The position numbers and the translations under genes are program-made. DNA of 64,000 nt from Candidatus Poribacteria bacterium. Its GTDB lineage: Bacteria > Poribacteria > WGA-4E > PCPOR2b. Positions 7,556 to 27,705 of the stretch are shown here, piece by piece; positions within the stretch are counted from its first letter, which is position 1, and every line of letters starts with the position of its first letter. The stretch covers positions 4,096,001 to 4,160,000 of the forward strand of contig OZ220744.1 in NCBI GenBank assembly GCA_965116925.1. The letters run 5' to 3'. The notes under the pieces are model-generated. The model had not been told where the DNA came from. It was given only the letters and a program-made list of their open reading frames with translations, and did not search any database.

Positions 7556-7886
7556 TAAGATCCTTTAATTCTTCGGGCGGGGCAAGATGAAGATTAATTT
7601 ATTAATTGGGTAATTTCCGAGCGATGTCCGGTGCGGTTGGATGAAGATTAAAAAAATAATTCGGTAATTTGCTAGCGACGCCGGCGCGGTTGAAAACCGC
7701 GCCTACCGTGTGTTTGGAGGCAAATCGGGATTACCGATTTAAATACTTAAACTTCATCCAACCGCACCTACCGGGTCTGGGGAAATATAGAATTACCCGT
7801 TTAATTTCTTAAAACCCATGATGCCCCGCCTACGGATTCGGATCATTCCAAAATCACTCAAAAAACCGAAAGCTAAATAGCCCTAG
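7556..7886. mobile_element. nested MITEs: family E host containing family B (7587-7819), which contains family B (7641-7757)
   Basis: Host is homologous (reverse complement) to 47845-47955. The inserts have ATGAAGATTAA...CAT ends and split palindromes. Confidence 0.75.
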
Positions 7887-7990: not shown

Positions 7991-9118
7991 ATGAAAATTG
8001 ACAAAATCGAATCCTTTTTCATCGGTGGTGGTTACGTGGTTCGCATTCACACCGATAACGGTATCAGTGGCATCGGTCAGACCGCCTGCTGGGGCTATCC
8101 CGAAGCGGTCGACAGAATCGTCGCAACCTTTGAAAAGTATCTAATCGGTCAAAACCCCCTGCGCATCGAACATCACTGGCAGTATCTCTACCGCATGGGT
8201 CCGTTTCGCGGCACCGCCCTCTGTGGTGCGATCAGTGCGGTAGATATTGCGTTGTGGGACATCAAAGGTAAGCATTTCGGTGCACCGGTATGGGAGTTAT
8301 TGGGTGGGAATTGTCGCGACAAGATTCGCCTACATCTTATGGCGGGTGGATCGACTCCGGAGACAATGTTTCAGAGCGCGAAAGATGCGGTGGAAGAAGG
8401 ATTCACTGCGCTGAAGTTTGATCCGGTAATCGGTGGCTATCAGGATATGGCGTTGGATCGCTTGGTCAAGACCGCTCGCGATCTGGTTGCAGCGGCGCGA
8501 GAGGGAGGTGGTCCCGATCTCGACCTCATCGTCGAGGTCCATCGCAAACTCACGCCGATGAATGGGATTGTCTTGGCAGAAGCGTTGACACCTTTTAATA
8601 TTTACTTCCTTGAGGATCCCATCCAGATTGACAGCATTGTGTCGCAGGCGGAACTTGCCAAACGGATGACCGTTCCCTTGGGGAATGGTGAACGTCTGAC
8701 GACGATCTGGGAATTTCGTGAATTGCTCGCTGCGGGTGGACCTCAGTATGTCCGACCGGATGTGGCGTTGGCGGGCGGATTGACCCAATGCAAAAAGATC
8801 GCTGCAATCGCTGAATCGTACCACAGTGCAGTTGTTACGCACAATTTCTTGGGACCGTTGGTTACGACAGCTTCGTTACACCTCGACGCGAGTATCCCGA
8901 ACTTCATCACCCAGGAGTACACCAAGGGCGACGAATCACCCGACAATGCGGTTTATAAAACGTGCTATCAGCGTGAGGGCGGTTATATTCCCATTCCCGA
9001 AGCACCGGGACTTGGCGTGGAATTGGACGATAGTCTGATAGAGCAGAGACCCTACCAGCCGATGAACACCGGTCAGACTCTGTTGAGGAAAGATGGTTCG
9101 GTCGCTTATGCTGTATGA
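7991..9118 (+). CDS. mandelate racemase/enolase superfamily enzyme (galactonate dehydratase-like)
   Basis: SAVDIALWDIKGK, KxD, EDP, GER, HN and PEAPGLGVE motifs. Confidence 0.9.
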   Translation: MKIDKIESFFIGGGYVVRIHTDNGISGIGQTACWGYPEAVDRIVATFEKYLIGQNPLRIEHHWQYLYRMGPFRGTALCGAISAVDIALWDIKGKHFGAPVWELLGGNCRDKIRLHLMAGGSTPETMFQSAKDAVEEGFTALKFDPVIGGYQDMALDRLVKTARDLVAAAREGGGPDLDLIVEVHRKLTPMNGIVLAEALTPFNIYFLEDPIQIDSIVSQAELAKRMTVPLGNGERLTTIWEFRELLAAGGPQYVRPDVALAGGLTQCKKIAAIAESYHSAVVTHNFLGPLVTTASLHLDASIPNFITQEYTKGDESPDNAVYKTCYQREGGYIPIPEAPGLGVELDDSLIEQRPYQPMNTGQTLLRKDGSVAYAV

Positions 9119-9182: not shown

Positions 9183-9820
9183 GGTGCGGTTGAATGAAAA
9201 TTAAAAAAACAGTTCGGTAATTTGCTAGCGACACCGGCGCGGTTGAAAACCGCGCCTACCGTATGTTTCGAGGAAAATAGGGATTACCGATTTATAGTGG
9301 ACCTTAGAATTAATGAAACACTCCAAATCGGTGCGGTTACATGAAGATAAAAAAACAGTTCGGTAATTTGCTAGCGACACCGGCGCGGTTGAAAACCGCG
9401 CCTACCGTGTGTTTCGAGGAAAATCGAGATTACCGATTTAAATACTTAAATCTCATCAAACCGCACCTACCAAGTGAGGGGCGAAAGTGTATATTTATTT
9501 TTAGAATTCACTATAAATACTTTAGGACTTACGCAGTTGAATGGTCAAAGCCTTGTAGTTCGGCGATTCATCACCGCAGGATACTGTTTCTCATACCCGA
9601 TGAATCGGGCAACTACAGTATCCCCCTCTATCCCCCCGCAAGCAGGGGGAGGGAAGAACGCGCAATGAATTGCGCTACTACAAACCGAAGGGCGTAACTC
9701 CTATACTTAAACTTCATAAAACCGCACCTACCGGCCCCGATAATTAGTTTACCCCGATTTATCGGAGGGATCGAAATCGAGGGGGCGAAAGTGTATATTT
9801 ATTTTTCAGATTCACTATAA
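9183..9820. mobile_element. multi-level MITE nest (families B, C, B and A inside a family C-like host)
   Basis: B 9194-9717; C 9295-9513 (TA duplicated); B 9341-9456; A 9523-9703 (TACTT duplicated). Confidence 0.8.
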
Positions 9821-15456: not shown

Positions 15457-15840
15457 TATCACGTCTCTTTGCCTTCCTCCCACCATCAAAACGGATTCGT
15501 AACGCTATTCGCAAAACAATTTCTTCCATCTACCACCTGAAATCTGATATAATGGACGACTAAAACGTGAAACGTGAGAAGAAGGCTCTTGCCGTGTTCT
15601 GTACCTGAATCTGGATTTGGGGGATTTATACATCAGTCGCTCCACGATTGATTGAACTGACGAACCCGATACATAGCACTCCGCTGGAGTGCGGGGATTG
15701 GACGCATTGCTTTTCTATAGACATATCGCTCCTCTGGAGCGAAGGGAAGAGTACTTCAGCTTTAACGGAAAAACCGATGGATTTGCAATAGGTGGCATTT
15801 AGGTTAATTATAATTGATACTTTTGAAGGAGATACAAATA

Positions 15841-25874: not shown

Positions 25875-26210
25875 TTGGTTTCCTTTCTGTTGTCGATTTT
25901 GGATGAATCAATTGAGGCAGAAATGCTATGAATAATGATAACACACCCTCCACTATCAAGCAAGCCCTTTTACAACTGAATCCGATCTCAGGGGACTTTC
26001 GGAATATTCGTATTGAAAAATGGTGTTAGATGTGAGATAGTTATAGAAAGTTCATTGGTTTATTGATTGATTGAACTGATAAACTCTATACATCGCGCTC
26101 CTCATGAAGATTAATTTATTAATTGGGTAATTTCCGAGCGATGTCCGGTGCGGTTGGATGAAAATTAAAAAAACAGTTCGGTAATTTGCTAGCGACACCG
26201 GCGCGGTTAA

Positions 26211-27451
26211 ATGAAGATTAAAAAAATAATTCGGTAATATTGTTATTTGTGTTATCGTAGTGCCAAAGGAGGTATTCTCTGATGGCAAAACATCATACAC
26301 TTGAATTGAGTGAATCCGAAATCCAAGCCCTGGTTGAACTCCGAGATAAAGGCGAACCGGCTTATCTCCGAGAACGAGCAACGGCACTGTTGAAAATACA
26401 TCAAGGCGTTTCTCCGCATGAAGTTGCACGTAAGGGCTTGTTGAAAAAACGCGACCCTGACACCGTCTATGCGTGGTTGCGTCGCTATCGCGAACAAGGT
26501 CTGCGTGGGCTGTCTCATAATCCCGGTCGGGGTCGAAAACCTGCTTTTTTCCCCAAGTCGGCTGAAATGGCCAAATCAGAACTCTTACAAGCTATCGGTC
26601 AAGATCCGGGGCAAATCCCTCCGTATCAAACCCGCTGGACGCTGCACACACTCGGTCAGGTCGTACCCTGGTTGCGGGACATCTCTGTGCCGGGCATTCA
26701 CCAAATCCTCTCACGGGTGGGGATCAGCTATAAGCGTGCCAGAGACTATGTGCGGAGTCCGGATGTCGATTATACTGAAAAACTTTCTTGCGTCCAGCAC
26801 GCTTTAGAAACTGCACGTGACACGCTGGAAACTTGCGTTGTGCTTTACCAAGATGAGTTTAGCTTCAAACGACAACCGACCCTCGCAACAGACTGGGCAG
26901 AGACCGGCACGAAGCAGCCCTTGGCACGGCGCAGTCACTGCTCCGAAGAAACCTGTTATGGCATCGGTGCGCTCAATCCACACACAGGGGAGGTCATTTA
27001 CCAGCAGGTCGAAACCTGCACAGTGGTCGCACTGCATACCTTTTACACACAGATTTGCCAACACTACCCAAAAGCCGAACGTATCTATCTGGTTCAGGAT
27101 AATCGAGCGATACACTTTCATCCGAACCTCACCGCAGCGCTCCTGCAACAGACAACGACGTTTGCCAAACCCACACCGCCTAACTGGACAGGCAAACCGT
27201 CAAACAAAATCGGCAAACTCGCCAAACTCCCTATTGAGATATTGCAACTGCCGACCTATGCCGCGTGGACAAACCCAATTGAGAAGTTGTGGCGCTGGGT
27301 GCGTCAGTCGGTTATACATCTCCATCGGCTCAGTAATGACTGGCAGGCACTTCAAGACAAAGTGCTTGCCTTCATGCAGCAGTTTAAAGACGGGTCACAG
27401 CAACTGCTACACTATGTCGGATTATTACCGAATTAATAAATTAATCTTCAT
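26211..27451 (+). mobile_element. IS630-family insertion sequence (1241 bp)
   Basis: 28-bp imperfect TIRs ATGAAGATTAAAAAAATAATTCGGTAAT / ATTACCGAATTAATAAATTAATCTTCAT enclosing a transposase. Confidence 0.9.
26282..27436 (+). CDS. IS630 family transposase
   Basis: HTH region with GRGRKP, RWTL, and YQDE / VQDN / NPIEKLW catalytic motifs. Confidence 0.93.
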   Translation: MAKHHTLELSESEIQALVELRDKGEPAYLRERATALLKIHQGVSPHEVARKGLLKKRDPDTVYAWLRRYREQGLRGLSHNPGRGRKPAFFPKSAEMAKSELLQAIGQDPGQIPPYQTRWTLHTLGQVVPWLRDISVPGIHQILSRVGISYKRARDYVRSPDVDYTEKLSCVQHALETARDTLETCVVLYQDEFSFKRQPTLATDWAETGTKQPLARRSHCSEETCYGIGALNPHTGEVIYQQVETCTVVALHTFYTQICQHYPKAERIYLVQDNRAIHFHPNLTAALLQQTTTFAKPTPPNWTGKPSNKIGKLAKLPIEILQLPTYAAWTNPIEKLWRWVRQSVIHLHRLSNDWQALQDKVLAFMQQFKDGSQQLLHYVGLLPN

Positions 27452-27705
27452 AAAACCGCGCCTACCGTATGTTTCGAGGAAAATAGGGATTACCGATTTA
27501 AATACTTAAACTTCATGAAACCGCACCTACCGGGTCTGGGGAAATATAGAATTACCTGTTTAATTTCTTAAAACCCATCTGGAGCGAAATTGGTTATGCC
27601 GATTGTTAGTATGGTGTTGGGTTTCACGATTCGCGTTCAACCCAACCTACACAACCCTATCAACTATCGGGTCGAAATAAGAGACTTGAATTATAGGACT
27701 TTATC

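Follow-up and report, generated by a model that had tools for sequence, protein, structure and literature searches.

Palindrome-centred insertion of an IS630-family element and its putative MITEs in Candidatus Poribacteria

The IS630/Tc1/mariner transposases are regarded as defined by their insertion at TA and the 2-bp duplication that goes with it (PMC2170065). ISY100 goes almost exclusively into TA, which becomes duplicated, and 34 of 39 of its in vitro products were normal (PMC2170065); with Mos1 the TA target is bent by 147 degrees and its adenines are flipped (PMC5481204). RUP of S. pneumoniae and the Correia elements, which are non-autonomous and about 110 bp long, have been assigned to IS630 by the similarity of their TIRs (PMC2229807, PMC2817692). 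Insertion into REPs has been described for IS1397, ISKpn1 and ISPsy8 (IS3), for IS621, ISPa11 and ISPpu9/10 (IS110) and for ISRm22 (IS4); ISPsy8 and ISRm22 insert at the axis of a hairpin or palindrome, and the mismatched flanks of ISRm22 were explained by recombination (PMC1525189). In the sections drawn on here, that survey of REP targets covers the families IS3, IS110, IS4, IS256 and IS5, leaves IS630 unmentioned, and gives duplications of 0, 2, 3 or 6 bp with one REP consensus per IS (PMC1525189). The DDE element IS1272 of Staphylococcus has inverted repeats of unrelated sequence as its targets, for which its authors proposed cruciform recognition (PMC5678879), and the target of ISPpu10 (IS110) has to match in sequence and also to form a stem-loop (bioRxiv 10.64898/2026.03.19.712850). 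Our literature search returned no paper describing a REP- or hairpin-targeting IS630 element, and an unnoticed database entry is possible.

The locus studied here lies in a stretch of 64,000 nucleotides (the window; G000:C1:4096001-4160000) of the 6.47-Mb genome (G000) of a sponge-symbiont bacterium, Candidatus Poribacteria. It is a triple nest at 26104-27578, in which a 115-bp-type MITE encloses a 117-bp-type MITE that in turn encloses a 1241-bp IS with a 384-aa ORF. Its parts are given below in window coordinates; a slash marks the point of insertion in a junction.

26096..26103, forward strand: host target palindrome, left arm and two loop bases (CGCTCC family; 141 empty copies with a 3-nt loop genome-wide)
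26104..27578, forward strand: outer MITE, 115-bp type, inserted as tc/ct in the host palindrome; empty orthologue in the genome G019 (L226)
26158..27516, forward strand: middle MITE, 117-bp type, inserted as gg/ga in the REP of the outer MITE; its central REP is split by the IS
26211..27451, forward strand: autonomous IS630-family element of 1241 bp with ends ATG...CAT and 28-bp imperfect TIRs (24/28)
REP hairpin inside the middle MITE: insertion site of the window IS, junction aa/aa
26211..26238, forward strand: left TIR of the IS; the 117-bp MITE type has one end that is near-identical to it
26282..27436, forward strand: transposase ORF, 384 aa, with N-terminal HTH domains and a DDE_3 domain (D191, D273, E334)
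27424..27451, reverse strand: right TIR of the IS, within which the transposase stop codon partly falls; the 115-bp MITE type has one end that differs from it by 1 mismatch
27579..27586, forward strand: host target palindrome, duplicated base, last loop base and right arm

A second IS copy, 98.6% identical to the window copy and with identical boundaries, is located at 1430426-1431666 of G000; a tblastn search of this genome found no other transposase related to the window IS, which leaves two IS copies. A promoter scan of the left end of the 26104 nest gave results at chance level only.

The transposase is intact; it scored 161.1 bits against the IS630 model NF033545 (cut-off 100) and also matched PF13358 and HTH families. 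D191, D273 and E334 were invariant in an alignment of 27 sequences, and the top structural match of the predicted protein model (mean pLDDT 86.2) was Mos1 (E 2.8e-9). The anatomy is likewise IS630-like, with a single ORF between TIRs, a length of 1241 bp and two copies with the same boundaries. In the IS630 family about 34-35 residues separate the second D from the E. This spacing is 60 in the window transposase, 59-63 in most related loci and 32-36 in some relatives. Judged from its protein the element is thus an IS630 element, and judged from its target, with TA duplicated in none of 100 paired elements, a non-canonical one.

The short elements of the genome (at most 130 bp; n = 89) are non-coding, multi-copy and bounded by TIRs, and the 115-bp type is represented by 17 copies with a mean difference of 1.7 bases and 29 identical pairs. 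A central REP hairpin with a 3-nt loop is carried by 88 of the 89, and seven inner/outer nested pairs were found; the first-pass annotation of the window was therefore right in claiming that the MITEs carry a new target hairpin and that the system nests in itself. Its claim that the IS shares its ends with the MITEs holds for one MITE end only: this end lies within 0-1 mismatch of an IS TIR (28/89 for the left TIR, 23/89 for the right TIR), while the other end has 5-9 mismatches over 28 positions to the IS TIR most similar to it in 87 of the 89 short copies. Because the IS body is without a REP core and one MITE end has diverged, the MITEs appear to be REPs captured between two ends and not simple deletions. 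On the basis of TIR similarity and the shared target signature, which full-length relatives display too, they are putatively assigned to the window IS, which would be the element that mobilises them. The other elements of the window are as follows.

7587..7819, forward strand: 115-bp-type MITE, inserted as ag/ga in a REP of the GGGGCA family; encloses the MITE at 7641
7641..7757, forward strand: 117-bp-type MITE, located inside the REP that the 7587 MITE carries; gg/cc, the sole window junction without duplication
9194..9717, forward strand: 117-bp-type MITE, ga/aa, with its right end broken by a TA-type MITE and one more element; left unpaired by the script and closed by eye at 9717, past the two interrupting elements
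9295..9513, forward strand: family-A TA-duplicating MITE (control family), within the right end of the 9194 element and with the same REP aboard
9341..9456, forward strand: 116-bp MITE of the hairpin-targeting family, inserted as ac/ca in the REP of the family-A MITE
15727..15741, forward strand: empty palindrome from the family to which the 26104 target belongs, CGCTCC-TCT-GGAGCG, with the 3-nt loop TCT

All seven window junctions lie 2 nt from the palindrome arms exactly as first described, six of the seven fit a 1-bp duplication of the middle loop base (gg/cc being the exception), and the empty palindrome at 15727-15741 is present as reported.

A pattern search of G000 recovered 232 ends, of which 200 were paired into 100 elements; the 32 unpaired ends were excluded from the counts, and the 29 of these that were inspected mostly showed a recognisable palindrome half plus two bases. 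Over the 100 paired elements arm pairing was maximal at offset 2/2, with a mean of 7.2 of 8 positions. At this offset at least 6 of 8 positions were paired in 93 elements, compared with 0.49% of 200,000 random positions and with 869 of 126,492 non-ORF positions (0.69%). A duplication of 1 bp fitted 79 elements and one of 2 bp five, whereas duplications of 3, 4 and 5 bp fitted none, and TA was duplicated in none of the 100. The scoring of flank palindromy and duplication at the genome-wide TIR copies, which had been set beforehand as a check, thus came out in favour of the first description (93/100 palindromic, 79/100 duplicated), including its statement that no TA is duplicated.

When the right flanks were shuffled, the mean number of 1-bp duplications was 17.1 of 54 in the GCGGTT target family, which the MITEs themselves carry, and 12.4 of 46 in the rest, compared with 35 and 44 observed; the duplication is accordingly found in 44 of 46 elements outside the GCGGTT family and in 35 of 54 inside it (Fisher p = 1.4e-4). 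Since 19 of the 21 copies without duplication, among which is the second IS copy, fall in the GCGGTT family, the exceptions are concentrated at sites at which the element as well as the flank is multi-copy. They would fit an origin by recombination or by adjacent deletion, in line with the argument made for ISRm22 (PMC1525189). It should be considered that 39 of the 100 elements lie inside family-A MITEs and may be composite copies, so that the number of independent events would be smaller. The two sites of the IS itself illustrate the pattern poorly: the AAA loop of the window copy is absent from the 88 internal MITE loops (GAA in 47), and the flanks of the second copy are non-duplicated.

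Empty copies of the target palindromes were used to look at the site before insertion. Loops of 3 nt prevail over loops of 4 nt in the families CGCTCC (141 vs 1), CAATCT (39 vs 3) and GGGGCA (78 vs 2), and they carry the predicted bases (CAATCT: AAC in 38 of 39; CGCTCC: AGA or AGC in 136 of 141; GGGGCA: AGA in 75 of 78); the CAGGTT family departs from this, as 20 of its empty loops have four nt and 7 have three. Rejoined sites folded to a hairpin centred on the duplicated base in 75 of 79 cases, compared with 99 of 1000 random ones. At the window site 26104 the orthologue in G019 is empty and has the loop TCT where the filled site reads tc/ct, and this was the one of 15 orthologous stretches that had retained a comparable empty palindrome. 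At 929987 of G000, a low-copy non-REP palindrome, two of seven orthologues (L239 and L240) are intact, with the loop TAT compared with TA/AT. The empty orthologues prove a 1-bp duplication of a pre-existing palindrome at these two sites. The site at 3707076 is an even palindrome; its rejoined flanks are exactly as long as the site in two of five orthologues, and hence no base was duplicated there. The orthologue comparison was ambiguous at 2957354 owing to variable TA runs, and the orthologue search for 1421130 and 3443072 yielded no usable empty site. The first-pass annotation had asked whether the true ends might include the palindrome arms. They do not: the arms vary while the ends are constant, and the arms are intact at the empty orthologues, which places them outside the element.

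Related transposase loci were taken as the best 80 of 437 genome loci and the best 80 of at least 578 metagenome loci. Paired ends were obtained for 125 of the 160 loci by automated end calls, of which at least five fell on a neighbouring repeat (L003, L009, L037, L089, L146), and several loci are near-copies. Among the matches listed, the closest relatives of the transposase belong to Candidatus Poribacteria. In these (56-84% identity) the arms were paired in 50 of 59 cases, 40 of the 50 with a 1-bp duplication. In a second Poribacteria genome (G001) 42 stretches gave 28 paired MITE copies, 25 of them with a 1-bp duplication; six G001 MITEs are located at the centre of 5-nt loops (L165, L169, L170, L173, L194, L197) and four sites are off-centre or ambiguous (L161, L183, L186, L212). 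Palindrome targeting is real and general within the lineage of the IS. The initial description of a 3-nt loop entered 2 nt from each arm captures the common case, to which the 5-nt loops of these MITEs and the even palindrome without duplication have to be added. A rule by which the duplication length equals 4 minus the loop length was rejected, because the G001 MITEs enter 5-nt loops centrally with a 1-bp duplication.

The distant relatives (39-48% identity), from Chloroflexota, cyanobacteria and metagenome contigs, have ATG...CAT ends and are inserted at TN/NA, mostly unduplicated. T occupies position -2 in 125 of 132 half-sites, a near-fixed preference that looks like sequence readout. The arms are paired in 29 of 66, and 28 of these are even palindromes; 19 of the 28 have central bases unlike each other, so that a duplication is excluded in those relatives. 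The remaining 37 of 66 flanks are unpaired and count against a universal structure rule; many of them look like halves of two different repeats, as from collapsed assemblies. In G002 the empty repeat has a 4-nt loop in four copies and a 3-nt loop in none, and the TT/TA junctions there are therefore unduplicated. A quick, midpoint-rooted tree of 86 catalytic domains placed the Poribacteria elements in one group (support 100) separate from the TN/NA elements, and does not fix the direction of change. The TIR pattern was also run over five genomes, where the strict version had no match and a looser version matched in four of the five; in the Anaerolineae genome G004 the script recovered no paired MITE among 7 stretches, and a scan of viral contigs for relatives found none. 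Public contigs gave nothing interpretable for an excision footprint or circle, as joints could derive from other MITE copies.

The 25-residue insertion between D and E was considered as a hairpin reader and rejected, since DD35E relatives share the ATG...CAT ends and the TN/NA flanks, some of them with paired arms (L146). The insertion is missing from the TN/NA relatives L275, L287 and L290. In the relatives compared, no protein feature was identified that might account for the putative shift in target.

From these comparisons we consider it rather probable that the window IS represents a distinct lineage of IS630 elements with ATG...CAT ends, in which the transposase has given up the TA target in favour of the symmetry axis of short palindromes. 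A transposase dimer would bind the 28-bp TIRs via its HTH domains, as can be inferred from ISY100 and Mos1 (PMC2170065, PMC5481204), and the IS or MITE would be excised by cut-and-paste in the manner of ISY100 (PMC2170065). The captured target would be the tip of a small hairpin or cruciform, extruded or easily deformed into one, and the transposase may physically recognise the hairpin. Strand transfer would take place into a sharply deformed target, with attack after the first loop base on each strand, so that the points at which the two 3'-OH ends join would be separated by one base, the central one of the loop, which gap repair would then copy; an odd palindrome would give a 1-nt stagger and an even palindrome a blunt insertion. 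As the most abundant hairpins of this kind, REPs would take most of the insertions and act as intergenic landing sites, and a MITE, because it carries a central REP, would replace the hairpin that it breaks, make a new target and nest as at 26104-27578.

A wider version of this proposal is only tentative, and we give it less than an even chance: a widespread IS630 clade (Poribacteria, Chloroflexota and cyanobacteria) could have become a structure-guided integrase, with two active sites that act on the paired loops of a cruciform extruded from almost any arms and with a stagger set by the symmetry of the target (1 bp for an axis running through a base, 0 for one lying between bases).

It is unlikely, in our estimation, that the hairpins are instead found by another protein, i.e., that REP hairpins are bound or nicked by a host or RAYT (TnpA-REP) protein, which brings in the transpososome, while the transposase reads a short symmetric sequence only. 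The targets are mainly REPs, short multi-copy palindromes that adjoin Y1 (RAYT/TnpA-REP) genes, and two major target families do so in G000: the GCGGTT family (205 empty copies, with a GTAG-type tag) at 701269 and 328972, and the CGCTCC family at 6296312. Such delivery would also agree with the strong differences in hit rate between REP families, which vary widely even among the pyrimidine-closed ones (CAATCT, 10 filled and 36 empty; GCATAC, 1 and 85). However, a minority of the targets are low-copy palindromes outside the REP definition, and these are hit in the same register (929987, 3443072, 2957354, 1421130 and 3707076 of G000), two of them with empty orthologues. Moreover, the arms of the targets fall into at least a dozen unrelated families.

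Quite unlikely, too, is a combination of duplex readout and selection, by which the dimer would read a degenerate symmetric B-DNA motif (YYDNHRR, or TNNA in the distant relatives) and the surviving insertions would be mainly those in intergenic REPs. The motif fits 85 of the 100 insertions, the 37 distant relatives without paired arms still keep TN/NA, and four purine-closed REP families (140, 103, 49 and 48 copies; 340 in total) have zero insertions. Palindromes, however, make up 1.7% of the 259,792 genomic matches to the motif and 0.7% of the non-ORF positions, yet they are 93 of the 100 targets. The left and right arms also co-vary across unrelated sequences, and a fixed half-site preference cannot yield covariation: of the 20 arm classes, four of which are variants of one family, 19 pair with their own partner, compared with a mean of 1.8 and a maximum of 8 in 10,000 shuffles. 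As an in-genome control, the family-A TA-MITEs occupy the same intergenic space and have palindromic flanks in 0 of 95 cases. Pure structure recognition was rejected: two pyrimidines precede the loop in 68 of 73 filled perfect hairpins compared with 537 of 1483 empty ones, and the purine-closed REPs are never hit. The uneven hit rates of the pyrimidine-closed families likewise speak against structure being sufficient. The evidence from symmetry and closing bases therefore leads to a rule of palindrome plus loose sequence preference. The earlier suggestion that target choice depends on structure was borne out by the palindrome centring and has to be corrected in that structure is insufficient, pyrimidine closure being strongly preferred.

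We regard it as very unlikely that the ends were misassigned, the element being in fact TG...CA and the flanking A and T part of a near-canonical TA or TNA duplication. Some relatives are readable in this way, and L067 and L146 then give a TA duplication. For G000 this assignment was rejected by the duplication counts, as with A and T taken as flank, duplications of 1, 2, 3 and 4 bp fit 0, 2, 1 and 4 of the 100 elements. Furthermore, the target bases vary from site to site but the A and T do not, and the corresponding bases are not T or A at the empty orthologues; the differing central bases of the relatives with paired even arms and the 4-nt loops of G002 argue against it as well.

That the palindromes were produced by insertion, later gene conversion or assembly error and not chosen is hardly credible, since hundreds of empty palindromes share the arms and loops, the orthologous empty sites are already palindromic and the pattern repeats in many independent assemblies, although some non-duplicated junctions are fully self-complementary or two-site hybrids (gg/cc, AC/GT and TG/CA; GT/AC in relatives), so that secondary rearrangement does occur.

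Palindrome-axis targeting by the transposase, the reading preferred here, would present the same fold acting with a 1-bp or 0-bp stagger on palindromes, and hence a natural experiment in DDE target choice and duplication length. It would also offer a small single-protein test case for cruciforms or hairpins as integration targets in vivo, and possibly a tool for non-disruptive intergenic integration. Two selfish systems are linked, as Y1-tied REPs serve both as landing sites and as MITE cargo. If the structure-guided reading is true, a mariner-fold enzyme could be aimed by a designed hairpin, and the MITEs would manufacture their own landing sites and disperse REPs independently of RAYT.

REP and hairpin targeting has already been published for other IS families, and what appears to be new here is its occurrence in the IS630 family, the many arm sequences and the 1-bp duplication. 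With ISY100, IS630 and Mos1 the element has in common a single transposase between TIRs, HTH and DDE domains, a fold that matches Mos1 and short MITE passengers; it is unlike them in its lack of TA duplications (0/100), its 1-bp duplication (0 in the distant relatives), its use of a palindrome axis and its D-to-E spacing of 60. Like the REP-targeting ISs of the IS1397/ISRm22 type it uses REPs as landing sites at a fixed position, but its target range is broader, with 20 arm classes that include non-REP palindromes, and its duplication is 1 bp. IS1272, in the account of it cited above, deletes the target stem-loop and makes no duplication, whereas the element studied here keeps both arms and splits the loop centrally. 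ISPpu10 is described in the cited preprint as an RNA-guided recombinase with one conserved target, whereas the DDE enzyme considered here uses many sequences and enters the loop itself. RUP, according to the passages cited, inserts at TA-containing sites, in which it resembles the family-A MITE of G000 (TA, 0/95 palindromic), whereas the hairpin-targeting MITEs do not behave like this and carry their own target.

The second MITE family (family A), which duplicates TA and is about 102–108 bp long, was represented by 214 left ends in the whole of the window's own genome (G000), and its centre is the same REP as that in the hairpin-targeting MITEs, whose ends are ATG...CAT. TA sites within the ends of the latter receive insertions of family A, which in turn serves as a target of the hairpin-targeting family, and the two families therefore nest mutually. 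The features of the window considered here were:

Window 9295-9513, TA-type MITE of family A
Window about 9522-9703, third element bounded by short inverted ends of its own, read by eye
Window 7992-9118, ORF between two MITE clusters

By eye, the third element breaks the right end of the MITE at 9194 and contains additional hairpins; its insertion was apparently accompanied by a duplication of about 4 bp. The ORF, on inspection by eye, resembles one for an enzyme of the mandelate racemase/galactonate dehydratase type.

Further repeats and genes were located elsewhere in G000:

701269, 328972, 5955107, 6178252 and 6296312, Y1 transposase genes (PF01797)
3031636, 3452871, 3707076 and 2341949, minor MITE subfamily whose ATG...CAT ends are of a different sequence
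3443260-3443516 (L214), further repeat of about 257 bp

Each of the five Y1 genes is flanked by palindromic repeats, comprising four repeat families in total, and the REP immediately upstream of the gene at 328972 holds one MITE. Members of the minor MITE subfamily duplicated 1 bp where the palindrome was odd; at one even palindrome no base was duplicated. Both G000 and several members of the genus contain numerous copies of the repeat of about 257 bp.

Six loci (L002, L004, L028, L064, L162, and L176) carry a GT|AC junction at which the outer half of one REP meets that of its inverted partner, as would be expected after an adjacent deletion or if two insertions had recombined. Some GCGGTT and CAGGTT palindromes of G000 have 4-nt loops (AGGA, GGGA) identical to the filled junction minus the element, which could be either excision footprints or native loops.

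In the Ardenticatenaceae record (L073-L080) the left end starts with ATTG instead of ATG; despite this, all eight copies had the identical boundary and the TN|NA flanks (bar, element position) of distant IS630 relatives.
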